This document shows positions 17,791-29,789 of a DNA stretch of 64,000 bases, in pieces; position 1 is the stretch's first letter; each line of letters begins with the position of its first letter. Both the position numbers and the translations under genes were made by a program. The DNA is from Chitinophagales bacterium (lineage in GTDB: Bacteria > Bacteroidota > Bacteroidia > Chitinophagales > JADIYW01): positions 470,098 to 534,097 of the forward strand of contig CBDCGV010000018.1 of assembly GCA_965216955.1 (NCBI GenBank), in the 5' to 3' direction. Below the pieces are notes generated by a model, which worked only from the letters and a program-made list of their open reading frames with translations, was not told the DNA's origin and ran no database searches.

Positions 17791-17821
17791 TGAATGTCCT
17801 TATTTCATAAGGGCGTTCATT
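17789..17821. terminator. candidate stem-loop at the clpC / caspase-gene convergent junction
   Basis: AATGAATGTCCTT-atttcat-AAGGGCGTTCATT forms a 13-bp stem on the plus-strand RNA (two G-U pairs). It overlaps both stop codons. No clear U-tract follows. Confidence 0.3.
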
Positions 17822-20800
17822 TCGTTGTATATTTCTGAAATTAAGTTATCCATTTTATTCTCACTTCCAGAGAGTTCTATTTCTCCTACACTTTCTTTAT
17901 TTTGAAATAGTCTAGCTTTTAATTTTATTGCTCCTTCATCATTAATGGTGTACCTACCTTTAATAGAATATGCTTGAGGGTAATTATTTACATCTACAAA
18001 AATAAGTGATGCTTTCTCTCCTTTTGCAGAAGTCTCATTAAGTTTTTGATCAAGCATCGCTCCAATAGATAAGATATCTTCATAAGCGAATTCCTCTTGA
18101 AAAACCGAGCGGATAAACACGGGTTTAATGTCTGCTAATTCAATGGTCACTTTATCATCTACTTTTCCAATATAAAAGCTATTCCCTCCTTTTGGAACAG
18201 CTAAAATAGGCTCCTGCACTCCCCCTATATGAGTTGCTAAACTCGGTACTCTATCTACTGAATATTGAAACAATTGCATCACATCTACAAAATGTAACTC
18301 TCTAAGTGCTGCTCCTTTAATTCCTGCTAACAAACTGTATGTCAACAAACTCTGTCCAAAGCTACTCGCCTCATAACTAACTTTATTTTCTGCACTTCCG
18401 GTTAAAACAAACATTCCTGTTCTATCCTTTAGTCTTTCCAAAGCTCTAATCTGGCTAGAACTAACGGCTTTCTCTCCATGCAAAATATCGTCAATTGCTT
18501 TGCCTGAATTACAAGCATCTATAATAAGTACCTGCTTTTGTGCTTTGATATCATTGATCCATTGAGTTAACTCATCTGTAGAAATTGCATAGTTTTTTCT
18601 TATCGTTGGATCTGACAAATCTCCACTCTCTACATCTTTTGTCAGGTAATAAAAAGACGAATGCTCTCCTCCATAGCTAACGCCATGTCCTGACAAATAA
18701 ACGACAATAACATCATTCGATTTTGCCTTATTCATTACTTCTTCAAATGTCCTTATGATATTCTCCTTACTTGAAAGCGCCTTGCCCCCCCCATTACTTA
18801 CAAGCGTTTTTATGTAAACTCTATCTAGACCAAATAAATTTTCTCCACTTTGTTGAAGCGCATTACTAAATTGCAAGGCATCTTTATCAGCATATTTTAA
18901 ATCTAATTGATCTCCTCTATAATCCGCTGAACCAATTACAATAGCATATAAACTAGGCAGCGAAGATTTTAAGCCAAAGCCATTAGGCTTTGTATTTTGT
19001 TTCTTATCATTATCATAGTCATAGATATAGTTTAGACCCACTCTCCCACTATGTAGATTCTCAGCTTCGTTATAGGCAATAACTGCAATTTTGTTTTTAC
19101 CACTTAAAAAATAGTCTTTATAATGATTCAAATCAATTGCAATACTACCCTCCTGAATAAAACTAGATACATCCGAAACGACTTCCTTATCATTGATAAA
19201 TAATGGTACTCGACCAATGCCTCCACCTCTTTCTTTTAAAAGGATCTTTAATTCATCTACCTCAATTTCAAGATTTACTATAGGATAAAGTTGAAGTGCT
19301 CCAAGGGCTTCTACATCTCTTATAGCTTCTGTATTATAGCCCAGCAATTTTTGAAGTAGCCCAGGTTCATAGTAGCGTTCTTTCAATTGATACAAATCAA
19401 TAACCTCTTTACCTTTAAAAGAAAAGTGCAGTTGGTCAATATTTCCGCCATTTGATGCATCATACCTTCCTGCACTATCTATTACTGCCCAGTCCCCATT
19501 ATCATAAGCATAAATTTCTGCCACAGGGACAAAATCTCGGGCATTCCAAAGTATCATTTTCCCATCCCAAGAAAAGCTAATCATAAATTTCCCATCTTTA
19601 GAAAATCGCAATCCATTTACTAAATTCCCATGTTTTAAATAAGATTTAAGCACCTCTTTTTTTGAAACATCCAATAAAGCGACACTTCCATCATCATAAC
19701 CCACTACCAATTTCTGACTATTAGGAACGAATTGAACACTCTGAACATAGCTTCCTAAAGGAGCAAGTTTCCAGTGCCAACGATCATTTTTTAAATCATA
19801 AACAAACAAAGTGTCGTTATATCCACCAGTTGCAACAAATTGATCATCAGAATAGAAAGAAATATCTTGCAAAGAACTTCCTCCATCACCCTTAGGGTTA
19901 TGTATCATCAAAGTTTTTCCAGAATCAGGTGCAGTAACAAAAAATGCTTTATAAACTGTCCAGGCAATATAGTTTTTCTCATTGCTAAACTTAATGTTTT
20001 CTACACTTTGGCCCAGACTGAAACGCTCTATTAACTGATTACTTGTTTTCGTATAAATGAAAACAGAATCATCGTGTGAAACAGCAAACAAATTTGTGCT
20101 ATCACTATTGGAATAATTTAAATCGTTAAATTCATTATCAGGAAATTTTATACTCTCTTTCTCAAAAGGACTTTGTACATCACATGTCATTAATATGCTA
20201 TCCTCACCAACTGTGGCTAATCTTCTTCCATCAGGACTAAAATCAAATTGCTTAATTCTTGAATTGTGTGCATTAAGATGCTCCACTTTTCCCTGCTTTA
20301 AATTCCAATAAATTAATCCTTCTTCCCCTCCATTAAAACAAATGGTTGCATCATTTTGCGGTTGAAACTCTAAATCGTCAATCCATCTACTGCCTTTAAT
20401 TCTAAAATCCTCCTTTAATTCACTATTATAACAGGCAATATCTCTAGATGCCATGTAAATTTTTTCTCCGTTAGAATTTACTGATATCAAGTTTGACAAA
20501 TAAGGACTAACCTTTATTTTTTTTATCGTTTTTCTACCCTCAAAATCATACACCACCATAAAAGTGTCTGACTCAAAAAAATACAATAGATCGTTATTAG
20601 AAGTCGCCTTATCTACTCCACTCCCATTCATTTTAAACAGATTTTTTCTCTGTTTAAAATCCCTTACAATTAGTTCATTACTCCCCCATTTAAAATTTTC
20701 TAGAACAACGATCTCTTCGTTTATAAATACCGCATTAACAATATCTAATTCAGACTTAATTTCATCTATTAAAATACTATCCTGAATATCCCAAAGCTGA

Positions 20801-21369
20801 TAATTTCCTTCATCAGTAAAATCCTTAGTTGCCATTAATAAATACCGGTCACTAGGAGAAAAAGCCAACGCCGAAACCGTCTGCTTAGGGGTAATTTTAA
20901 ACATCTTTTCAACGCTCCATTTTTTAGAATTGTAAACATAAACTTCCCCCTTGGTATTTCCTCCAGCAATATAATTATGCTTGTTTCCACGTGCCAATGA
21001 TATGCAAGCATTAGGAAAATGAAAATTGTATGCTTTCCAATCTTCTAGTGCATACCCTAACAAAGAAGGCCCATCTATACCATAGCTTCCAGACAGTAGA
21101 TATTTAGAATCTTTAGTAAATACTAAATCATATGGGCTGTCTTTACTATATAATTGCTTTAATAGTCTTCCTGAATGCGCATCCCATACTTTAATGAGGT
21201 TGTCAATGCCTCCTGAAGCCAGATAGCGTCCATCTTCACTTAATGCAATGGCATTGATTTGATTAGTATGTCCATTTTGCAATACAATTTCTAGATCACT
21301 ACTGCTAAATCCTTTTGTGATTGAAAAGAAAAGATATGATATAAATGCGTATTTTAGTAAATGGCACAT
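17800..21369 (-). CDS. exported WD40-repeat protein with C-terminal caspase-like (peptidase C14) domain
   Basis: 1189 aa. N-terminal signal-like segment MCHLLKYAFISYLFFSITKGFSS. Clear WD40 blades include GHTNQINAIALSEDGRYLASGGIDNLIKVWD, IKQFDFSPDGRRLATVGEDSIL and VNGLRFSKDGKFMISFSWDGKMILWN. The caspase catalytic dyad context is VVYLSGHGV (His, codon 18685-18687) and LIIDACNSGKA (Cys, codon 18511-18513). Confidence 0.85.
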   Translation of the reverse strand: MCHLLKYAFISYLFFSITKGFSSSDLEIVLQNGHTNQINAIALSEDGRYLASGGIDNLIKVWDAHSGRLLKQLYSKDSPYDLVFTKDSKYLLSGSYGIDGPSLLGYALEDWKAYNFHFPNACISLARGNKHNYIAGGNTKGEVYVYNSKKWSVEKMFKITPKQTVSALAFSPSDRYLLMATKDFTDEGNYQLWDIQDSILIDEIKSELDIVNAVFINEEIVVLENFKWGSNELIVRDFKQRKNLFKMNGSGVDKATSNNDLLYFFESDTFMVVYDFEGRKTIKKIKVSPYLSNLISVNSNGEKIYMASRDIACYNSELKEDFRIKGSRWIDDLEFQPQNDATICFNGGEEGLIYWNLKQGKVEHLNAHNSRIKQFDFSPDGRRLATVGEDSILMTCDVQSPFEKESIKFPDNEFNDLNYSNSDSTNLFAVSHDDSVFIYTKTSNQLIERFSLGQSVENIKFSNEKNYIAWTVYKAFFVTAPDSGKTLMIHNPKGDGGSSLQDISFYSDDQFVATGGYNDTLFVYDLKNDRWHWKLAPLGSYVQSVQFVPNSQKLVVGYDDGSVALLDVSKKEVLKSYLKHGNLVNGLRFSKDGKFMISFSWDGKMILWNARDFVPVAEIYAYDNGDWAVIDSAGRYDASNGGNIDQLHFSFKGKEVIDLYQLKERYYEPGLLQKLLGYNTEAIRDVEALGALQLYPIVNLEIEVDELKILLKERGGGIGRVPLFINDKEVVSDVSSFIQEGSIAIDLNHYKDYFLSGKNKIAVIAYNEAENLHSGRVGLNYIYDYDNDKKQNTKPNGFGLKSSLPSLYAIVIGSADYRGDQLDLKYADKDALQFSNALQQSGENLFGLDRVYIKTLVSNGGGKALSSKENIIRTFEEVMNKAKSNDVIVVYLSGHGVSYGGEHSSFYYLTKDVESGDLSDPTIRKNYAISTDELTQWINDIKAQKQVLIIDACNSGKAIDDILHGEKAVSSSQIRALERLKDRTGMFVLTGSAENKVSYEASSFGQSLLTYSLLAGIKGAALRELHFVDVMQLFQYSVDRVPSLATHIGGVQEPILAVPKGGNSFYIGKVDDKVTIELADIKPVFIRSVFQEEFAYEDILSIGAMLDQKLNETSAKGEKASLIFVDVNNYPQAYSIKGRYTINDEGAIKLKARLFQNKESVGEIELSGSENKMDNLISEIYNEMNALMK
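18280..18951 (-). other. caspase/C14 catalytic domain of the WD40-caspase protein (approximate bounds)
   Basis: LYAIVIGSADY...YLSGHG...IIDACNSG...FVLTGSAENKVSYE. By my count the dyad residues are His895 and Cys953. Confidence 0.75.
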
Positions 21370-21439
21370 TATTTGAACTTGTAGCTAATATTAAATTTTA
21401 TTTCAATATTTGTGCCATGCTAATTTAAACTTAAAAGTT

Positions 21440-24400
21440 ATGAAAACGAATTTAATCACTGCAACTTTAGCATTCCTGTTTTTGATACAAATATCTTCTG
21501 CACAAAGGACAGGACTTTTATTCAATGATGAAGCATATAAAAAAGTACCATTAGTCGATAAAGCCACTTTAGGCTGGACAGCTACCGACTTGCCCAGCAG
21601 TACCTCGTTAAAATCCTATGCCCCTATTCCGGGAAATCAGGGTGACTATGGTACTTGTGTAGGCTGGTCAACGGCATATGCAGCACTAACCATTGTACAT
21701 GCAAAAAAATACAAGTTAACTGATAAAGAACAAATAACTGCCTCTGCATTCTGCCCCTATTATCTATACGATCAATTTAAAGGAGAATACGATTTATTTT
21801 GTCAAACAGGTGGTTTTTTTGAAGATGCGCTAGATGTGCTTTATAAAAAAGGAGCCAAAAAATATTACTTACCTGAATTTTCATGTTATTCAAGTGCTAC
21901 TTCACATCCTGATGAAATTGCAAAAAACTTCCGCATCGACAACTATTTCAGACTTTTTGACTTTGAACAAACTCAAAATACAGAAACAGGATATTTAGTA
22001 GAAAAAATCACAAATGTTAAGTCCGCTCTTGCAGACGGTAATCCGGTTTTATTTGGGATGTTTGTTCCTAACTCTTTTATTAACTTATTAGGTGATGACA
22101 ATTGGACTCCGACATATAGTGAAAAACTAAACTACAACCAACAAGCAGGTCATGCTATGGTTATTGTTGGGTATGATAATTACAAGTATGGTGGTGCATT
22201 TCAAATTATGAATAGCTGGGGTACTGAATGGGGGAAAGATGGTTTTGCATGGATAAAATATGATGACTTTAAGAAATTTGTACATACAGCATTTTATTTT
22301 GAAATTGACAATAGTTACACCCCTTCTTCTGGATGTTTATTAGGAGATTGCTCCAACTCCTATAGCCGCTACAAATGGCCCAACGGAGAAACTTATGAAG
22401 GAGAAATGGTAGATGGATATTTGACAGGTTCTGGCATTTACTACTGGAACAATGGAGAAGTTCATGTTGGAGAATGGAAAAATGGGAAAAGACATGGTGA
22501 AGGAATCAGTACTTCAGCATATGGATACATTACTAGAGGTTTTTGGAAGGATGATGTTTATGTAGGCAAAGAAGAACCCGATTATACAGATTACACCACT
22601 ATTGTTGAGACTAAAGAGGAGGAAGAAAAAAAGGAAACGGAAGAAGAAAAAGAAGTTGAAACCGATTGGAACAGCATTTTTAACGACATTATTGATGGTG
22701 AAACAGAAATAAAAGATGATATAGCTAACGGATGTATAAGTGGAGACTGTGATAATGGATATGGAAAATTTATTTACTCAGATGGAGATATTTATGAAGG
22801 CTATTTTAAAAGCAGTTATAGAAACGGTTTTGGCAAATATCAATATATAGAAGGTGATGTATATACTGGAGAATGGTCGTGGAATACAAGGTCGGGGTTA
22901 GGGCATTATGTTTGGCCTAGCGGAAACATTTATATTGGGTATTGGAAAAACAACTCCCAACATGGCAAAGGCACCAAGTTTCATAAAGATGGTACCACAA
23001 ATGCAGGGGAATGGGAAAATGGCACCTTCAAGGATCCCAATAATACATTTGGGTTTGCCGGCAATAAAAAAGATATAGAAAAGACTCAAAACAGTTATAG
23101 TAGAGGTATTCATATGCCAGAAGCTGAAGAGTATAAGAGCAACGTGAAAGCCAGTCCTATCCTAAAACAAAATGGATTTGGAATCCCCAAGGGTGGATTA
23201 GAACAAAAAATGAATAGTGATTACAACACCGTTAAACGAGTAGTTACACATATTTTAAAGGCATCTGGAAGATCGGATTTAAGAAATCCTCCTATTAAAA
23301 TTATAGATGATCCTAACGAAGTTGCATTTATCCATCCCAAAACAGGAATTAATGTAAGCCATAAGTTTTTGGAAGTTTGTAAAAGTTTTGGGAAAGATGC
23401 AGAAACAGCATTGGCCTTTGTTTTAGCACATGAATTAGGTCATTATATTAATGACCATTTTTTTTCTTTTGAATACGGTTCTGCCTATGCAAGCACTGAA
23501 TGGGGGCAACAAATGAAAAAAGCCTATATGCCTATTAAGGATATGGGATACTATGAATCTCAAGCGGATGAATTTGGCCTATTTGTAAGCTATACAGCTG
23601 GTTACAATACATTAGAAATTGGCCCTCAGGTAATCGACCGTATATATGAAGCATTTAGTCTTCCCGAAGAACTCCCAGGTTATCCCCCTAAATCTTTCCG
23701 AAAGGATCAGATAGAAATTGCTAAAAAAAAAGTCCAAGACTTAATTCCGGTATTTGAAGCGGGAAATATTCTTAGTCTTTTAAGTGGTGCTGCTATTGGT
23801 AATGAAAAAATGGAAGTAACAAAAGCAGCCATTAGTTGTTATGACCACATTATACAAAGTAAAATCACTACCGCAGAGATGTACAATAATATTGGTATCA
23901 ATTATCTGCACATGGCCTTAACTGAAAAAGCAGATGAAATTAAGTTGGCATTCCCTATAGAAATAGACTTCAAAAGCAGATTATATATTAAATCCGTAAC
24001 AGGAAGCGGTAAAGGCCCAGGAGATCCTGATTTAGGCTGGGGAGATGATGAAGATACCGAAGAACCAGACCCTGATGCCCTTTTTAAAGAATATCTTTAC
24101 CAAGCAGAAGCTTTTTTAGACAAAGCACTTTCTATAGATAAAAATTATTTACCCGCAAATAACAATAAGGTTATCGTGGCTATTTTAAGTCAAGATCTTG
24201 ACGAAGCGGAGTATCTTGCAAAAAAAGCGGCTAAAAAAGCCAAGCAATTTCAAAGCAAAATTGACGAAAGAAATGCCCACGATTTATTATACATCATTTA
24301 CATGCTTAACGATGATACAGAAACTGCCTTAAAATATTACAATCTAGCTACAGCTATGAATAGCCCTTATACTGTATTTAATGAGAAGAAAATTAAAAAT

Positions 24401-24907
24401 CCAAAGTACAACCCACAATCTGAAATAGATAACAGTAATGCACAGGGTCTCGCAGATGTAAAATTTGCTGTTGATCCAAGAGATTATCAACGTCCTTTTG
24501 ATAATGACCAAGAAAAAATAAATGGAATGACGTTATGGGATATTACTAATCAATATATTTATGATGGTAAAGACATACAAACATGGAACGTTGGCAACGA
24601 CAACAAAGCACAAATTGGAAAAGACATTATAGATGATGGAGAGCTGGTTATTTTCCTACGACTTGATAGAGGTCAGTTCAACGGAGCCTATTCATTTTAT
24701 CAAGTGGACAACACTTTTACAGGTAATACGATGAAAGACATAAAAGTTGGGAATAACAGTGAACAGGTCGTTACTGCTTACAATAATCCACATCACGTTG
24801 TATCCTCAACACAACATGACTACTGGGTATATATAAAAAACAACATCATATTCAAAATTGATCAAAAAGACCAAGTTGATGGATGGATATATTATGACAT
24901 CAATTAA
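21440..24907 (+). CDS. exported mosaic protease: papain-like C1 peptidase + MORN array + MORN array + HExxH zincin (M48/BepA-like) + TPR-like helices + C-terminal beta-rich domain
   Basis: 1155 aa from the ATG at 21440; the track's TTG at 21410 is rejected. Signal peptide MKTNLITATLAFLFLIQISSAQ. C1 triad context NQGDYGTCVGWS (Cys codon 21656-21658), GHAMVIVGYD and MNSWGTEWGKDGF. MORN repeats (YEGEMVDGYLTGSG, HVGEWKNGKRHGEG, YTGEWSWNTRSGLG, YIGYWKNNSQHGKG). AHELGH at 23429-23443 with a downstream YYESQADEFG. Confidence 0.8.
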   Translation: MKTNLITATLAFLFLIQISSAQRTGLLFNDEAYKKVPLVDKATLGWTATDLPSSTSLKSYAPIPGNQGDYGTCVGWSTAYAALTIVHAKKYKLTDKEQITASAFCPYYLYDQFKGEYDLFCQTGGFFEDALDVLYKKGAKKYYLPEFSCYSSATSHPDEIAKNFRIDNYFRLFDFEQTQNTETGYLVEKITNVKSALADGNPVLFGMFVPNSFINLLGDDNWTPTYSEKLNYNQQAGHAMVIVGYDNYKYGGAFQIMNSWGTEWGKDGFAWIKYDDFKKFVHTAFYFEIDNSYTPSSGCLLGDCSNSYSRYKWPNGETYEGEMVDGYLTGSGIYYWNNGEVHVGEWKNGKRHGEGISTSAYGYITRGFWKDDVYVGKEEPDYTDYTTIVETKEEEEKKETEEEKEVETDWNSIFNDIIDGETEIKDDIANGCISGDCDNGYGKFIYSDGDIYEGYFKSSYRNGFGKYQYIEGDVYTGEWSWNTRSGLGHYVWPSGNIYIGYWKNNSQHGKGTKFHKDGTTNAGEWENGTFKDPNNTFGFAGNKKDIEKTQNSYSRGIHMPEAEEYKSNVKASPILKQNGFGIPKGGLEQKMNSDYNTVKRVVTHILKASGRSDLRNPPIKIIDDPNEVAFIHPKTGINVSHKFLEVCKSFGKDAETALAFVLAHELGHYINDHFFSFEYGSAYASTEWGQQMKKAYMPIKDMGYYESQADEFGLFVSYTAGYNTLEIGPQVIDRIYEAFSLPEELPGYPPKSFRKDQIEIAKKKVQDLIPVFEAGNILSLLSGAAIGNEKMEVTKAAISCYDHIIQSKITTAEMYNNIGINYLHMALTEKADEIKLAFPIEIDFKSRLYIKSVTGSGKGPGDPDLGWGDDEDTEEPDPDALFKEYLYQAEAFLDKALSIDKNYLPANNNKVIVAILSQDLDEAEYLAKKAAKKAKQFQSKIDERNAHDLLYIIYMLNDDTETALKYYNLATAMNSPYTVFNEKKIKNPKYNPQSEIDNSNAQGLADVKFAVDPRDYQRPFDNDQEKINGMTLWDITNQYIYDGKDIQTWNVGNDNKAQIGKDIIDDGELVIFLRLDRGQFNGAYSFYQVDNTFTGNTMKDIKVGNNSEQVVTAYNNPHHVVSSTQHDYWVYIKNNIIFKIDQKDQVDGWIYYDIN
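21587..22294 (+). other. papain-like (C1) peptidase domain
   Basis: Gln/Cys (NQGDYGTCVGWS), His (QQAGHAMVIVGY) and Asn-Ser-Trp (IMNSWGTEWG) occur in canonical order and spacing. Confidence 0.8.
22331..22570 (+). repeat. MORN repeat array 1 (protein-level repeats), opened by a GC-x2-GDC-x-N-x-Y motif
   Basis: GCLLGDCSNSYSRYKWPNGETYEGEMVDGYLTGSGIYYWNNGEVHVGEWKNGKRHGEG...FWKDDVYVGK. Confidence 0.75.
22730..23029 (+). repeat. MORN repeat array 2, opened by the same Cys motif
   Basis: GCISGDCDNGYGKFIYSDGDIYEGYFKSSYRNGFGKYQYIEGDVYTGEWSWNTRSGLGHYVWPSGNIYIGYWKNNSQHGKGTKFHKDGTTNAGEWENGTF. Confidence 0.75.
23237..23629 (+). other. zincin metallopeptidase-like domain (HExxH ... ExxADxxG)
   Basis: LAFVLAHELGHYINDH is followed 38 residues after the second His by YYESQADEFGLF, the pattern seen in M48-type peptidases. 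Confidence 0.6.
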
Positions 24908-24917
24908 ACCATTTACC

Positions 24918-26432
24918 ATGAAAACAACAATTTTCGCTTTCTTCATACTTCTTGGAACCTTCAAAATAAGTAGTGCTCAAGATTTTGTTATAGAGTATGA
25001 TTTTTTAAATAAAACCACAAAATATTTTAAAATAAGCAAGAAGGGAGATACTACCGAAACTACAAAACCAATAGCAAAACAAAATCAGGATATTCAACTA
25101 AAGGTCATCAATTACAATGAGTTTGCTTTGGTAACGGAGGCAGACATAACGAATGAAGAGATAATTGAGTCTTCCAACCCTTTTAGTATGTTTGGAGCAC
25201 TCTCCCCTATTTTTAATACCGTGTCAAAAAGTGTATTATCAGGAATGTTCGATGGAACCGGTGCTGATGTAGATGACATTGACTTTGGATTTGGTTATAG
25301 TTCAAAAGGCAACAATGATGAACGTCTCAAAGCTGCGTTAAAACAATATGCACTTCTTAGTTCAAAAATGAATGAATTAGATGCATTAGAAGATGCGATA
25401 CAATCTATTAATTATGCCATAGGTCGTGTCAAAAAGATCGTTTACAATCCAAATGCTAATCCAAATGATATCAAAGGTCAAACGAAAAGTATTGTTCGTG
25501 ATGTTTTAAATAATGGAGACAAGCTTACCTACATTAATTTTCAAAGAAAATACAACACATTAACTTCCAGAATGAGCGAACTTAGTCGAGCTGCTAAACA
25601 AAATGGCAATAGAGTACTTGCCTATGAAGAGCATGAAGATGCAAATTTAGGTTTTAGTTCTAAAGAAAGTGCGCTCACCTATGAAGAGGTAAGTGCAGAA
25701 ACAGAAGAGATGCTAAAACTTATCGAAGAATTTGAAAACGCTTATACTTCTGAAGAATTACAAGAAAAATTAGATGAACTCCAAGAATTATATGATGCAG
25801 TAAATACTTCAAATTTCACTTATACAACAAGTGCGACTGCCGAAGGAGATCGAACAAACATTAATGTCTCCTTCTATGAACACCTTCCTGATGGAGTTGA
25901 CAAGGGGAAACTTAGCAACTCTCTTAAAAGTAATAATAAAGGAGATGAAGACGAGAATTTTTTGAGAAGCGAATCTTTTAAAGTCCGAGTTAAAGGTGGT
26001 CTTAAAATCGTCCCTAGTGTTGGTTTAACTTTCCCCACCTACTTTAACCAAAACAAAGAGTTTTATACTATTGGCGACACGCTAATTGCTCAAACAGGAG
26101 GAGATAATTTTGTTCCAAATATTACTGCTATGATTAATTTCTATCCTTACACAGGTAGAGCAATAAATTTTGGAGGTAGTTTCGGGATTGGCATTCCAGT
26201 AAAAGCAGAAAAATTCGCCCCACAGTATATGATGGGTGGAGCATTGGTATTAGGTCAAAAATATCGAATTATTTTAAGTGCTGGTATGTCTGTCGGTCCG
26301 GTTACAACTTTAAGACCCGGATATGAAGTAGGAGAAAATATCAGTGCCTTTGATGATTTGGAGACTGACTCCAAGTATAAAGTTGGATTTTATTCAGGCA
26401 TCTCCTTTACATTGGGTGTAGGTAGTGAATAA
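24918..26432 (+). CDS. hypothetical exported protein with coiled-coil middle and beta-barrel-like C-terminal third
   Basis: 504 aa from the ATG at 24918 (10 nt after the upstream stop); the track start at 24858 would overlap the upstream gene. Signal peptide MKTTIFAFFILLGTFKISSAQ. The centre is helical and Glu/Lys/Leu-rich. The C-terminus has alternating-hydrophobic strands ending KVGFYSGISFTLGVGSE. Confidence 0.6.
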   Translation: MKTTIFAFFILLGTFKISSAQDFVIEYDFLNKTTKYFKISKKGDTTETTKPIAKQNQDIQLKVINYNEFALVTEADITNEEIIESSNPFSMFGALSPIFNTVSKSVLSGMFDGTGADVDDIDFGFGYSSKGNNDERLKAALKQYALLSSKMNELDALEDAIQSINYAIGRVKKIVYNPNANPNDIKGQTKSIVRDVLNNGDKLTYINFQRKYNTLTSRMSELSRAAKQNGNRVLAYEEHEDANLGFSSKESALTYEEVSAETEEMLKLIEEFENAYTSEELQEKLDELQELYDAVNTSNFTYTTSATAEGDRTNINVSFYEHLPDGVDKGKLSNSLKSNNKGDEDENFLRSESFKVRVKGGLKIVPSVGLTFPTYFNQNKEFYTIGDTLIAQTGGDNFVPNITAMINFYPYTGRAINFGGSFGIGIPVKAEKFAPQYMMGGALVLGQKYRIILSAGMSVGPVTTLRPGYEVGENISAFDDLETDSKYKVGFYSGISFTLGVGSE

Positions 26433-26446
26433 ATAAATCCAATCAA

Positions 26447-27115
26447 ATGGTTTCAAACCTTAAATTCATTTTATTTCTTTTACTAATTATTTCATTTCAA
26501 GCATTTTCTCAGGAAAAAAGAGAAAAAGATGGTGCTTTCAAAAATTATAATGATACGACAGAAATAGCTATTCCAAATTTTAAGATTCACAAGGGATTCT
26601 ATAAAACTTTTGATGATTTAAAAAATGGAAAAGTAATGTCTGGTATTGATTTCAGTGTCAAAAGACAATTAGGTACAACTGAAGTACTTTTAAAATTTGA
26701 AAAAAAGAGTGACGCAAATATAATCAGGAAAGATACTTTCTACGCTGTATCTGATGGACACAGTCTTTATGTTAACCCTATCATTGCCGACAAATTGAAC
26801 CACGCATTTACAGTCAATAAATTTTACACTGTTAATTACATTGGCAGATATATTTATTATGAAATAAAGGGTGTTGTTATTGGACTATTGAGTGCTATTG
26901 CAAGTAACAATGGTGCATACGTAGTAAATATTAATGGTAAAAAAGGCATTAGCTACGCACTAAATAGAGAAACGATACTTAAAATCATTGGCTCAGATAA
27001 ACAACTAAAAAATGAAGTGCTTGGAAAAAAAAGAATCGCATTAAAAGAGTGTAAGGAAATTTTAAAAAGATATTGCGAAAAAAACGTAAAAGAAATTAGA
27101 GAAATAGCTAAATAA
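26447..27115 (+). CDS. hypothetical exported protein
   Basis: 222 aa, 14 nt after the upstream stop. Signal peptide MVSNLKFILFLLLIISFQAFSQ. No recognisable motif. Confidence 0.55.
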   Translation: MVSNLKFILFLLLIISFQAFSQEKREKDGAFKNYNDTTEIAIPNFKIHKGFYKTFDDLKNGKVMSGIDFSVKRQLGTTEVLLKFEKKSDANIIRKDTFYAVSDGHSLYVNPIIADKLNHAFTVNKFYTVNYIGRYIYYEIKGVVIGLLSAIASNNGAYVVNINGKKGISYALNRETILKIIGSDKQLKNEVLGKKRIALKECKEILKRYCEKNVKEIREIAK

Positions 27116-27159
27116 TTTTTGAATTGACAACCTCCTCATCTTATTGTTATTTTTATACT

Positions 27160-28371
27160 ATGACAAAATTTATAATTACATCTATAATTGGTTGTTTAGT
27201 ATTTCTTTCATGCAGCAAAGATGAAAACCAAACAAACGATCCTCAAGAGGAGGTTTTCGAAATTGACGATTACAATTATAAAACGGATATTCCCGATATG
27301 ATTGACTTCTATGAACAAGATCCTATTCAATACTATGCAGAATTTGGACTTCCAAGTATTACTAAGTCTGCATCGATTCTAAATGAATATGGAGATAACC
27401 CAATAGACGCTTTTGATTTATTACTTGCCTACTTCAGTGATAGCATGGCTCAAAAAGCAATAAACGATCAACTTTGGAGTAGAGCATTTATTCAAAAAAT
27501 GCAAAACGCAAGTGGAAATCTAGCAGAAAAATGGACTCATACAATAATACATTTCGGAAATCAGGTAAACCAACTATATATCCAAAATCCAGATGATCCT
27601 CAATTAGACCAACTGTATAAAATCTTAGGCGATGGAATACAACTTGTCATGCCAAATGAGTTTTTTATAGATATGATGATGATTGAAGATATTTCTCTAT
27701 ATGAATTTCCTATTACTAATGATTGGTTAGCTTTGACTTGTGGCTGCGGAATGGATGATGATGATGAAATAATAGAATGCGATGAAGAAGAAGTAGACAC
27801 CTTTGATCAAGAACCCAATGAAGTGAGAAAATGGAGTGAAGTAGACGAACCATTTATACCCCCACATAGATTTGATGGCAAATGTGCTACACTTGCTGCC
27901 GGTAACTGTCTGGTAAAACTAAAACAAATAGAAGATAAGATAGATATAGATATCTGGAAAGATTTATCAAAAAAATTGGGTGCCAAAAAAAGAGGCGGTG
28001 TTGATAGAAGAGCCACCAATGCTTATTTTAAATCACTCGGATTTGGTGTAACAGTTGCTGCAGATAAAAAAGGTGAAACTGCTGTTCAACAAGCAGCTAA
28101 GGCTATGGCTAAAGGATGTGATGTCAAGCTTTCTTTTGCAAACAAAGCCAAAAAAAAATATCATGTTGAATACGTTACTGATATTAAGGTCGATAAAGAT
28201 GACCCTAGTAAGGCGGTAATTACCTCTATCTCATGGGGCGTCAAATCAACACAAGACGTAAAAAATGGAAAGTTTACTAATAAGGAACCCAATAAAACAA
28301 GAAATGAGAATAGTTGGTTGTCGCAAGAAGGTGACGCTATTATTAGAATATTTTGCCCTGTAAAAAAATAA
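27160..28371 (+). CDS. hypothetical lipoprotein with acidic Cys-containing linker and C-terminal candidate Cys/His (papain-fold-like) domain
   Basis: 403 aa from the ATG at 27160. Lipobox VFLSCSKDENQ. Linker CGCGMDDDDEIIECDEEEVD. The C-terminal domain has GKCATLAAGNCLVKL (Cys at a predicted helix start) and KKYHVEYVTDIKVDKDDP (His then Asp). Confidence 0.55.
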   Translation: MTKFIITSIIGCLVFLSCSKDENQTNDPQEEVFEIDDYNYKTDIPDMIDFYEQDPIQYYAEFGLPSITKSASILNEYGDNPIDAFDLLLAYFSDSMAQKAINDQLWSRAFIQKMQNASGNLAEKWTHTIIHFGNQVNQLYIQNPDDPQLDQLYKILGDGIQLVMPNEFFIDMMMIEDISLYEFPITNDWLALTCGCGMDDDDEIIECDEEEVDTFDQEPNEVRKWSEVDEPFIPPHRFDGKCATLAAGNCLVKLKQIEDKIDIDIWKDLSKKLGAKKRGGVDRRATNAYFKSLGFGVTVAADKKGETAVQQAAKAMAKGCDVKLSFANKAKKKYHVEYVTDIKVDKDDPSKAVITSISWGVKSTQDVKNGKFTNKEPNKTRNENSWLSQEGDAIIRIFCPVKK

Positions 28372-28478: not shown

Positions 28479-29789
28479 ATGAATAGAATAAACATACTAT
28501 TGATATTGAGTTGCTTCTTTTTTTTATCATGTAATGAAGAAGATAATGAAGGCAATACAACACCTCCTTCGATGAATACAGACCTAAATATATTACTTAT
28601 CATAGCAGATGATATGGGCAAGGACGCTACTAATGGTTATACAGAAGGTAGTATTAAACCCAACACACCTCATTTGGATAGTCTGATGAACAACGGGTTG
28701 AGATTTAACAATTTTTGGACCTATACCGTTTGTTCTCCAACAAGAGCAAGTATTTTTACCGGAAAGTATGGTTATAGTACTAAAGTGCGCTCTCAATTTG
28801 ACCATATTGAAACTTCCGAAACTTCTTTACAAGCTTATATCAATCAGGAAACGGGCAACAAATATGCTACTGCTATGATTGGAAAGTGGCACTTAGGAAA
28901 TGGAAACAATTTCAATCCAGAAACCATGGGTATAGATTATTATGCAGGTATTATCTCTGGAAGTGTACAAAGTTATTATTCGTGGCAGCTTACGGAAGAT
29001 GGAGTTACAAATACTGAAACGGAATATACTACTACAAAACTTACAGACTTAGCTATTGATTGGATTGACCAGCAAACAAAACCCTGGTTTTTATGGTTGG
29101 CATATAATGCACCACATACACCATTTCATCTACCACCTTCAGAGATGCACTCGCAAAATGATTTATCATCTGATCAAAATGAAATTGACGCTAATCCACT
29201 TCCTTATTACATCGCCAGTATTGAAGCTATGGATTATCAAATTGGACAATTAATAGACCAAATAAATACAGATGAAAGGGCAAGTACAATCATTATTTTT
29301 ATTGGAGATAATGGTTCTCCTGGACGTGTCGTACAATCACCATATAGTAGAAGAAAAGCTAAGGGTTCGCTCTACCAAGGTGGTATTAATAGCCCCATGA
29401 TCGTCTCGGGAAAAAATGTTAATAGAACAGGTGACGAGAATGCATTAATTAATTCAACAGATTTGTTTGCAACTATCGCTGCCCTATCAGGAGTGAATAT
29501 TGATTCAATCAATAATAGCAAAGATTTTTCATCTTTATTAACCACCTCTTCTTCAAATTTTAGGAACTACACCTATTCGGAATATAAATACGATGACGAT
29601 AACATTGATGAATGGTGCATAAGAAACAATACGCATAAGCTAATTGAGAAAGCAGATGGATCAATGGAGTTATATAATTTAGAAATAGACCCCTATGAAA
29701 ACACGGATCTGCTAATATCAACATTATCAGCTACAGATTCTACCGCTAAAAATATACTTATTAATCAATTAGCGACAATTAGAGATTAA
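28479..29789 (+). CDS. sulfatase (Cys-type, formylglycine-dependent) lipoprotein
   Basis: 436 aa. Lipobox FFLSCNEE. Metal site LLIIADDMG. Sulfatase signature CSPTRASIFTGKY. GKWHLG motif. Confidence 0.88.
   Translation: MNRINILLILSCFFFLSCNEEDNEGNTTPPSMNTDLNILLIIADDMGKDATNGYTEGSIKPNTPHLDSLMNNGLRFNNFWTYTVCSPTRASIFTGKYGYSTKVRSQFDHIETSETSLQAYINQETGNKYATAMIGKWHLGNGNNFNPETMGIDYYAGIISGSVQSYYSWQLTEDGVTNTETEYTTTKLTDLAIDWIDQQTKPWFLWLAYNAPHTPFHLPPSEMHSQNDLSSDQNEIDANPLPYYIASIEAMDYQIGQLIDQINTDERASTIIIFIGDNGSPGRVVQSPYSRRKAKGSLYQGGINSPMIVSGKNVNRTGDENALINSTDLFATIAALSGVNIDSINNSKDFSSLLTTSSSNFRNYTYSEYKYDDDNIDEWCIRNNTHKLIEKADGSMELYNLEIDPYENTDLLISTLSATDSTAKNILINQLATIRD

Follow-up and report, generated by a model that had tools for sequence, protein, structure and literature searches.

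A conserved three-gene module of apparently exported proteases and a predicted outer-membrane partner in Bacteroidota

The 64,000-nucleotide (nt) stretch of a Chitinophagales genome analysed here (assembly GCA_965216955.1, contig CBDCGV010000018.1, positions 470,098 to 534,097), hereafter 'the window', contains a divergent group of five open reading frames (ORFs), for which a preliminary description made from the sequence alone had proposed a five-gene system of exported proteins with up to four protease folds. According to the ORF listing, G1, a WD40-caspase of 1189 amino acids (aa), lies on the minus strand (17800-21369). Four genes lie on the plus strand: G2, which combines C1 papain, MORN and M48-like domains (21440-24907, 1155 aa counted from the ATG); G3, the founding sequence of a new protein family (24918-26432, 504 aa); G4 (26447-27115, 222 aa); and G5 (27160-28371, 403 aa). 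The gaps between the plus-strand genes are 10, 14 and 44 nt when ATG starts are used, the start of G3 being backed by the alignment of its homologues, and G1 and G2 have in common a divergent intergenic region of 70 nt between their start codons (21370-21439). The five frames, the divergent gap and the spacing are all present as first described. The number of genes in the system had to be revised: the locus appears to consist of a conserved three-gene protease module, G1 to G3, apparently exported, and then of two lineage-specific genes, G4 and G5.

Related loci were collected from the contigs of G3 relatives and by a single motif scan across 185,579 species genomes; together, these two sources gave nine further loci. 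They belong to Chitinophagales and to unclassified Bacteroidota metagenome-assembled genomes (MAGs), and this group was designated 'clade A'. With the window counted, G2 was directly followed by G3 in all ten clade A loci, and G1 lay divergently upstream of G2 in every locus containing upstream DNA (8/8). Identities of the proteins to those of the window were 38 to 51%. The flanks varied from locus to locus and comprised genes for saccharopine dehydrogenase, exosortase, an M36 protease, DapB with a signal peptidase, an epimerase, LptD and an M23 peptidase. Since G1, G2 and G3 are kept together in the midst of locus-specific flanks, the trio moves as a unit. The recurrence of this arrangement is far beyond chance, and we are highly confident both that the three genes form a real, conserved module and that export signals are present on their products. 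Co-localisation in related genomes, by which the five-gene proposal was to be judged, was thus found for G1, G2 and G3, and not for G4 and G5.

G3, which the preliminary description had overlooked in this role, is the constant hallmark of the system, and it belongs to a large undescribed family tied to signal-peptide-bearing caspases. When 5.8 billion proteins were searched with G3, only 11 relatives came up, the best of them 47% identical. A profile run against 1.84 billion cluster representatives matched 909 clusters with an E-value of 1e-3 or less, 157 of which stood at 1e-30 or less, and we use the figure of at least 909 clusters for the family. G3 had no match in Pfam, in NCBIfam (even at E <= 10, apart from noise) or in PADLOC; when 41 diverse members of the family were compared with Pfam and NCBIfam, no model matched, the outer-membrane protein models of Pfam included. 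A PDB profile search with G3 returned coiled-coil noise only. In the word-indexed protein search, G3 gave no 100% self-match, unlike G4 and G5.

Structure prediction and Foldseek had been advised for the 504-aa protein, and the AlphaFold2 model, built on an alignment of 12 sequences, divides it into several parts (mean predicted local distance difference test (pLDDT) score 69.8, predicted template modelling score 0.46). A small beta-sandwich (residues 23-80) is followed by a segment rich in Gly, Ser, Leu and Phe (residues 81-132; 25158-25313, plus strand), which is predicted to be disordered (pLDDT 25-32). Despite this predicted disorder, its identity within clade A is 51%, and L95, L107, G122, F123 and G124 predominate at their positions across the family. 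Next comes a helical bundle (residues 133-298; 25314-25811, plus strand; helices in the model at 135-297, pLDDT 70-90). After it come a highly conserved hairpin holding AEGDRTNIN and an acidic disordered linker (residues 323-345; 25884-25952, plus strand), which has 16% identity and a variable length. Directly past the linker, at the start of the barrel described below, positions 350 and 352 are occupied by Lys or Arg in 61% and 56%, respectively, of the 41 family members.

The C-terminal part of G3 (25953-26429, plus strand; strands at residues 348-498) is predicted to form a small outer-membrane beta-barrel of about eight strands, the model having 8 to 9 strands with a pLDDT of 70-87. It is the most conserved region of the family, its strands alternate hydrophobic with small or polar residues, and the C-terminal ending is conserved as ...GISF(S/N/T)L. 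The best local Foldseek matches in the PDB were Ail, the transmembrane domain of OmpA, AlkL and OprH (E 0.035-0.6), and those in BFVD included phage-encoded 'outer membrane protein beta-barrel' proteins; none was significant. As a prediction, the small outer-membrane beta-barrel at the C-terminus is moderately supported by these observations.

G1 is organised, from its N-terminus, as a signal peptide, two WD40 propeller regions, a middle domain, a C14 caspase domain and a C-terminal domain, all on the minus strand. The N-terminal hydrophobic segment MCHLLKYAFISYLFFSITKGFSSS (21298-21369) is a probable signal peptide according to the alignment with homologues. The WD40 region (residues 25-625; 19495-21297) contains about 14 blades in two propellers and was matched by many beta-propeller models of Pfam (E 1e-45 to 1e-20). 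It is the least conserved part of the protein, with 24 to 30% identity compared to 62% in the caspase domain. This low conservation fits what would be expected of a ligand-binding part, for which the propellers are candidates. The middle domain (residues 626-805; 18955-19494) has no Pfam match, a conservation of 47% and many invariant residues, as in GRYDASNGG and YYEPGLLQKLL. The caspase domain (18190-18954) was matched by Peptidase_C14 (PF00656) over residues 808-1054, with 62.0 bits against a cut-off of 21.4. Its motifs are SGHG (893-896) and DACNSG (951-956), the catalytic codons being those of His895 (18685-18687) and Cys953 (18511-18513), and H895, D951 and C953 are invariant among six aligned sequences. 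The Pfam match and the invariant residues both bear out the initial identification of G1 as a WD40 protein with a C14 caspase domain. In NCBIfam, the best model was caspase_w_EACC1 (NF047832), at 72.1 bits, under its cut-off of 140. The C-terminal domain (residues 1061-1189; 17803-18189), again with no Pfam match, is 46% conserved and has the invariant stretch YPxAYSIKGRY.

A second signal-peptide-bearing WD40-caspase, 1182 aa long and about 21% identical to G1, is encoded in one clade A locus (L004, 17192-20740, minus strand), 5.6 kb downstream of the module and adjoining a gene for an HTH_5 regulator.

In G2, a signal peptide is followed by a C1 papain domain, a MORN block, an acidic linker, another MORN block, an M48-like zincin, a helical TPR-like region and a C-terminal beta domain, all on the plus strand. 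The papain-like domain (21503-22324) was matched by Peptidase_C1 (PF00112; 31.9 bits, cut-off 20.7) and by the cysteine protease structure 3ois (E 1e-11). The catalytic set Q67, C73 (21656-21658), H238 and N258 lies within the conserved motifs QGDYGTCVGWS (67-77), GHAMV (237-241) and NSWG (258-261), which are kept in all full-length homologues. The two MORN blocks (22325-23074) matched PF02493 with 58.9 bits and MORN1 structures with an E-value of 2.5e-23, and they are separated by an acidic low-complexity linker at 22595-22729. The M48-like zinc metalloprotease domain (23240-23809) was matched by Peptidase_M48 (PF01435; 28.6 bits, cut-off 20.3). It carries HELGH (664-668) and ESQADEFG (706-713), and H664, E665, H668 and E706 are invariant, also in the stand-alone paralogue presented below; an alignment with the M48 structure 3c37 extends across HExxH and E..AD, at an E-value of 0.15 only. 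The papain, MORN and zincin assignments made at the outset are confirmed, the catalytic residues being invariant. The remainder of the protein (23810-24904), made of the helical TPR-like region and the C-terminal beta domain, is 39 to 43% conserved. Its TPR matches in Pfam are sub-threshold (E 0.14-1.1), those of the homologues are faint, and a weak match to BamE was also found (E 0.016). Of the suggested combination of M48 and TPR domains, as in BepA, the M48-like part passes its Pfam cut-off, and TPR repeats are only weakly detectable (E >= 0.14). Likewise, three of the up to four protease folds initially counted (C14, C1 and M48-like) are present with intact, invariant catalytic residues, and the supposed fourth, a Cys/His fold in G5, found no support.

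Some variants of G2 were encountered in clade A. In L001 (1037-2974, minus strand), its C-terminal half (M48-like, TPR-like and C-terminal domains) has a stand-alone 645-aa paralogue, equipped with a signal peptide of its own, whose gene is the next one downstream of G1, the two overlapping by 44 nt at the 3' end of the caspase gene; in L002, which comes from a sister MAG, this paralogue is broken by 1-nt indels. G2 itself is split into two or three ORFs in L003 (6513-9972), L004 (6560-9990) and L007 (784-4232), and the split of L004 recurs in two samples. We considered that these pieces could be separate modules, but since the downstream ones have no signal peptides, frameshift or decay is likelier than true separate genes.

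With regard to localisation, G2, G3 and G4 have canonical signal peptides ending in SSA-Q or AFS-Q. An N-terminal Gln is typical of exported Bacteroidota proteins, and Gln occupies the first mature position in at least 90% of the 41 G3-family members. Each of the five homologues of G1 has a clean signal peptide with an A-Q ending at the aligned position. The claim that every one of the five proteins begins with a signal peptide or lipobox is thus sustained for G2 to G4, and for G5 in the form of a lipobox-like motif; that of G1 is atypical in the window and canonical in the homologues. The conservation of signal peptides on every component, distant homologues included, backs the reading of a system outside the cytoplasm, as the preliminary description had suggested. 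Neither the conserved units nor their immediate neighbours were seen to include an NTPase gene. Searches with Pfam and NCBIfam found no type IX secretion C-terminal domain (PF18962 or TIGR04183) in G1 to G5; the M36 protease next to the L004 module does carry this domain, which indicates that annotation detects it where present. The possibility that these proteins are type IX cargo was rejected, as G1 to G5 have no C-terminal sorting domains. On sequence grounds, the most economical view would place the components in the periplasm and on the periplasmic side of the outer membrane.

More distant relatives, designated 'clade B', were recovered by the motif scan of genomes and by a metagenome scan. 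They come from Seonamhaeicola, Gaetbulibacter aestuarii and Flavobacteriaceae MAGs, and their G3 homologues are 25 to 28% identical to G3 over an alignment of the full length. In all clade B loci with downstream DNA (15/15), a signal-peptide-bearing gene of caspase fold comes directly after the G3 homologue, at a distance of 4 to 27 nt or with a small overlap. The adjacent caspase usually has about 655 aa; one locus has a caspase-TPR protein in its place. Upstream, genes for a trypsin-ankyrin protein and a DUF900 alpha/beta-hydrolase are frequent, while CHAT, TPR-CHAT, caspase-TPR, WD40-caspase and RHS/DUF6531 proteins are found as additional genes downstream, and a single G3 homologue is often surrounded by a number of genes for caspase or CHAT proteins that carry WD40 or TPR repeats. 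Signal peptides stand at the start of all proteins encoded in the clade B clusters. Taking both clades together, G3 adjoins caspase-fold genes in every locus whose relevant flank is present.

Among the clade B loci, the one of Seonamhaeicola sp. MEBiC1930 (L010, 6973-21111; NZ_CP104270.1, 1,602,967-1,624,358) is a large cluster on one strand in which each protein has a signal peptide, and L008, L009, L025 and L030 are large one-strand clusters of the same kind. Their content is a trypsin-ankyrin protein, a DUF900 alpha/beta-hydrolase, a G3-like protein, two or three caspases, CHAT, caspase-TPR and RHS/DUF6531 proteins. A conserved lipoprotein of about 300 aa, with no Pfam match, was observed in L018 (18389-19291), L021 (19590-20492) and L022 (20350-21255); in L018 and L021, it stands beside a large signal-peptide-bearing protein (1038-1194 aa) with a C-terminal caspase domain.

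G4 and G5 have a different status. Each found only itself among 5.8e9 proteins, neither has a homologue in any related locus, and neither matched NCBIfam or PADLOC; G4 had no match in Pfam, and neither had G5, for which no peptidase family came up even at E <= 10. They are nevertheless real ORFs, since the chance of open frames of such length is about 3e-8 for G4 and 3e-14 for G5. From sequence comparison, they are best described as lineage-specific additions outside the conserved module, G4 being tightly linked to G3. G5 is a putative lipoprotein, with a lipobox-like FLSC followed by SKDEN. Its single-sequence AlphaFold2 model (pLDDT 39) is unusable for placing Cys242 and His335. A fourth protease fold in G5 is without support, given the absence of a Pfam peptidase match and the quality of the model, and a five-gene system was rejected, as G4 and G5 are without homologues and are missing from all related loci.

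The reading that we favour, tentatively and at somewhat less than an even chance, is that the module would be an envelope counterpart of the cytoplasmic modules in which a caspase is associated with a constant partner (EACC1, Pepco). G3 would be an outer-membrane protein whose N-terminal part extends into the periplasm, and would be the fixed partner on which sensor-proteases act, through docking, cleavage or both. The variable WD40 propellers, or TPR repeats in other clades, would bind an envelope trigger, upon which the caspase would become active. In metacaspases, the Asp two residues ahead of the catalytic Cys contributes to Arg/Lys specificity; because G1, as metacaspases do, keeps Asp951 two residues before Cys953, its caspase would probably cleave after Arg or Lys. 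Substrates of this caspase could be G3, with the basic residues that separate acidic linker from barrel as one potential site, the linkers of G2, or both. As a result, the outer membrane would change in permeability, or active papain and zincin proteases would be set free. As a mechanism, such a trigger-and-cleave periplasmic switch can be put forward with similar or slightly greater reserve. Two features of G3 were counted in its favour, the conserved Gly-rich hydrophobic segment and the semi-conserved dibasic site past the variable acidic linker, and there is experimental precedent for protease-gated pore-forming partners (bioRxiv 10.1101/2025.11.14.688446). In a broader version, which we consider rather unlikely, the periplasm would house caspase, CHAT and trypsin proteases tagged with WD40, TPR or ankyrin repeats; on sensing an intruder in the envelope or damage to it, they would cleave the G3 family and so open or remodel the outer membrane. 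It would be the first caspase sensing-and-execution system wholly outside the cytoplasm, would be widespread in Bacteroidota, and would follow the logic of the apoptosome or of gasdermins within the envelope and with no need of NTP.

Several observations weigh against the switch. The N-terminus of G1 in the window, hydrophobic as it is, is atypical as a signal peptide, and signal peptides were judged by inspection and conservation. The barrel call is drawn from a medium-confidence model with fold-match E-values above 0.001; an hhalign comparison of G3 with a Bacteroidota OMP_b-brl_2 (PF13568) protein aligned the signal peptide only. An outer-membrane barrel with a periplasmic domain is, besides, equally typical of a passive anchor. 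Strain-level hypervariability of the G1 sensor was examined and rejected: the near-identical genomes of L001 and L002 differ by 1 to 5 substitutions per kb, with no hotspot. No recognisable defence gene was found among the visible neighbours of the module loci, and no match to G3 on phages or plasmids. PADLOC-DB 2.0 returned generic domain matches only on the module proteins (caspase PDLC02987 at 40 bits, and a weak capP match on the zincin), so that the module was not assigned to a known anti-phage defence system of that database. Gene context covers about 30 loci of a family with at least 909 clusters. Finally, a third G3-like group (L017, 4301-5752; L031; L032, 10250-11073) has no adjacent caspase. 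In this group, the sequence is split into short ORFs, the best segment being 28 to 36% identical, and it adjoins a TPR lipoprotein and two other exported proteins.

The main rival to a trigger-dependent switch is a constitutive envelope processing or quality-control machine, in which G3 would be an anchor or scaffold and G1 and G2 accessory proteases of housekeeping type that would mature, trim or degrade proteins of the envelope or the cell surface, with no trigger and no cell-damaging output; BepA and the type IX attachment complex with PorU and PorZ would be its nearest likenesses. The BepA layout of the M48-like and helical-repeat half of G2 speaks for such a machine, the predicted topology of G3 (an N-terminal soluble part and a C-terminal barrel) would suit an anchor, and envelope-biogenesis genes are found as neighbours (LptD, LptC and MlaD in L016, a signal peptidase in L012, an M23 peptidase in L034). 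The lack of a defence-island context, of hypervariability between strains and of a phage or plasmid match for G3 points the same way. A housekeeping function is less easily reconciled with the very patchy spread of the module, of which the motif scan found 6 loci in the 185,579 species genomes, with its variable genomic context, or with the presence in clade B of several caspase and CHAT paralogues, each with different 'sensors', per G3 homologue. Moreover, the repeat domains are the least conserved parts, and no type IX secretion C-terminal domains were found. In our estimate the constitutive machine is rather unlikely.

A second rival is an exported offensive toolkit directed against eukaryotic hosts or prey or against competing bacteria, with G3 as an outer-membrane exit or display device. 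All components carry a signal peptide, and the modules are of 'eukaryote-like' type (WD40, MORN, ankyrin, TPR, cathepsin-like C1, caspases). In clade B, RHS/DUF6531, trypsin-ankyrin and alpha/beta-hydrolase proteins also bear signal peptides, and a role in algal interactions was proposed for a 35-kb island of signal-peptide-bearing WD40-metacaspases in Psychroflexus torquis (PMC3914696). However, no signal for crossing the outer membrane was recognised (type IX, autotransporter or two-partner-secretion domains), a barrel of about eight strands is too small for folded proteins of 130 kDa, and the N-terminal domain of G3 would normally face the periplasm, which together make this explanation quite improbable. 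That there is no system at all, the genes being unrelated neighbours, or the N-termini not being export signals and G1 an ordinary cytoplasmic WD40-caspase conflict protein, is hardly tenable. The weak signal peptide of G1 in the window and the fact that G4 and G5 are unrelated to the conserved unit could be invoked for it, but the conservation data already contradict it: the three-gene arrangement is kept at about 40 to 50% identity in 10 loci with different flanks, the G1 homologues have canonical signal peptides, and no NTPase or other cytoplasmic partner is present.

Bacterial WD40- or TPR-caspases are understood as cytoplasmic conflict or cell-death devices with NTPase switches and latent partners (EACC1, Pepco, gasdermins). 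The closest parallel to the envelope counterpart that we favour is the EACC1-caspase module, in which the gene of a constant membrane partner lies 5' of that for a caspase whose appended domains vary (Kaur, Burroughs, Iyer and Aravind 2020, PMC7159879) and which is a protease-activated pore former (Evans et al. 2025, bioRxiv 10.1101/2025.11.14.688446). In both cases, a caspase-fold protease that bears variable repeat or 'sensor' domains has as its neighbour a constant, non-enzymatic, membrane-associated partner (membrane association being a prediction for G3), further peptidase effectors accompany the pair, and the partner contains a conserved stretch in which glycine and small residues abound. 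The order of the genes, partner 5' and caspase 3', is that of clade B, while in the window the caspase gene is divergent. The G1 caspase also scores best on the EACC1-associated model (72 bits, under the cut-off of 140). The differences are equally clear. EACC1 is a protein of about 110 aa with a single transmembrane helix bearing a Gly patch; no EACC1 ORF exists at the locus, and G3 has about 500 aa, a signal peptide and a predicted outer-membrane barrel. All components here have signal peptides, the organisms are Bacteroidota and not Actinobacteria, and the caspase domain of G1 is C-terminal to the repeats. With no EACC1 partner and an NF047832 score below cut-off, the locus was not classified as an EACC1-caspase module.

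Pepco, EACC1 and alpha/beta-hydrolase modules have in common latent effectors that are released by site-specific cleavage (bioRxiv 10.1101/2025.11.14.688446). Pepco and alpha/beta-hydrolase modules resemble the present one in the pairing of a protease with a partner, in WD40 (beta-transducin) sensors and in a barrel-forming partner, the barrel of G3 being predicted, and the trypsin and alpha/beta-hydrolase pair of clade B recalls the alpha/beta-hydrolase-protease module (Evans et al. 2025). Pepco itself is a cytoplasmic protein of 117 aa that forms a barrel by oligomerising, whereas G3 is predicted to form one as a monomer, and the two have no sequence similarity. The known modules of these two types are also cytoplasmic and tied to phage sensors, Avs/STAND among them, and no such sensor is present here.

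Two further comparisons concern the envelope itself. BepA is a periplasmic M48 and TPR protease that acts at the BAM/LptD machinery; like it, the C-terminal half of G2 has an M48-like zincin (HExxH…E) in a signal-peptide-bearing protein, followed by a helical, TPR-like region, and G2 is tied genomically to a predicted barrel protein. Unlike in BepA, the M48 match of G2 is weak and is fused to papain and MORN domains, and G2 is rare and accessory, not part of a core genome. The type IX attachment complex contains the clan-CD peptidase PorU, the double-propeller protein PorZ and the barrels PorV and PorQ. It would share with the present module its Bacteroidota-specific distribution and the combination of a clan-CD cysteine peptidase and a double beta-propeller held on outer-membrane barrels, the barrel being a prediction for G3. 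It differs by a C25 instead of a C14 peptidase, by 14-stranded FadL-like barrels and by type IX C-terminal domains, absent here.

The C14 His-Cys dyad combined with WD40 or TPR repeats is a trait that G1 shares with prokaryotic metacaspases and orthocaspases. Proteins of this kind, some with N-terminal signal or transmembrane segments, were catalogued earlier (Asplund-Samuelsson 2012, PMC3501461), and a cluster of putatively secreted WD40-metacaspases was noted in Psychroflexus torquis (PMC3914696). In the literature searched here, we found no description of the G3 family, of its strict pairing with signal-peptide-bearing caspases, of the fixed unit of G1 divergent from G2-G3, or of a partner logic. 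Confirmation of the function would bring protease-gated switching into the cell envelope, where there is no ATP. It would also provide a first functional handle on an unannotated family of at least 909 clusters, and on the many putatively secreted metacaspases in the genomes of Flavobacteriia, Chitinophagia and Saprospiria. Direct tests are feasible, since Gaetbulibacter aestuarii JCM 17455 and Seonamhaeicola sp. MEBiC1930 and NFXS20 are carriers that can be cultured.

As for the surroundings of the module, the window has a uniform GC content, and no tRNA genes were found in it. Promoter and terminator scans gave counts near the shuffled expectation, Bacteroidota promoters being outside the coverage of the scan. 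An imperfect inverted repeat of 17 nt (ATGGCACATTATTTGAA at 21361-21377 and TTCAATATTTGTGCCAT at 21402-21418, 76% complementary) covers the G1 start codon and the 70-nt intergenic region, and could be an operator. The G1/G2 intergenic regions of the homologous loci are 64 to 101 nt long and alignable in part, and the repeat is not obviously kept in them.

Downstream of G3, a conserved run of genes was observed in L001 (11794-14995), L003 (11787-14412), L004 (12113-16238) and L007 (6087-8225). It encodes a 106-aa helical protein with no signal peptide, an ORF of about 81 to 98 aa, a GT2 glycosyltransferase and an amine-oxidase-like protein (of STELLO type in L003). This run is not present in the window, L012, L013 or L016, and probably reflects lineage synteny. 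In the window, G5 is adjoined by a sulfatase gene (28479-29789), whose product is also a predicted lipoprotein (FLSC, then NEEDNE). An acidic stretch after the lipid-modified Cys, reminiscent of the signal that directs Bacteroidota lipoproteins to the cell surface, is present in both the sulfatase and G5 (CSKDEN). Sulfatase and formylglycine-generating-enzyme genes are also found in L001, about 5 kb from its module.

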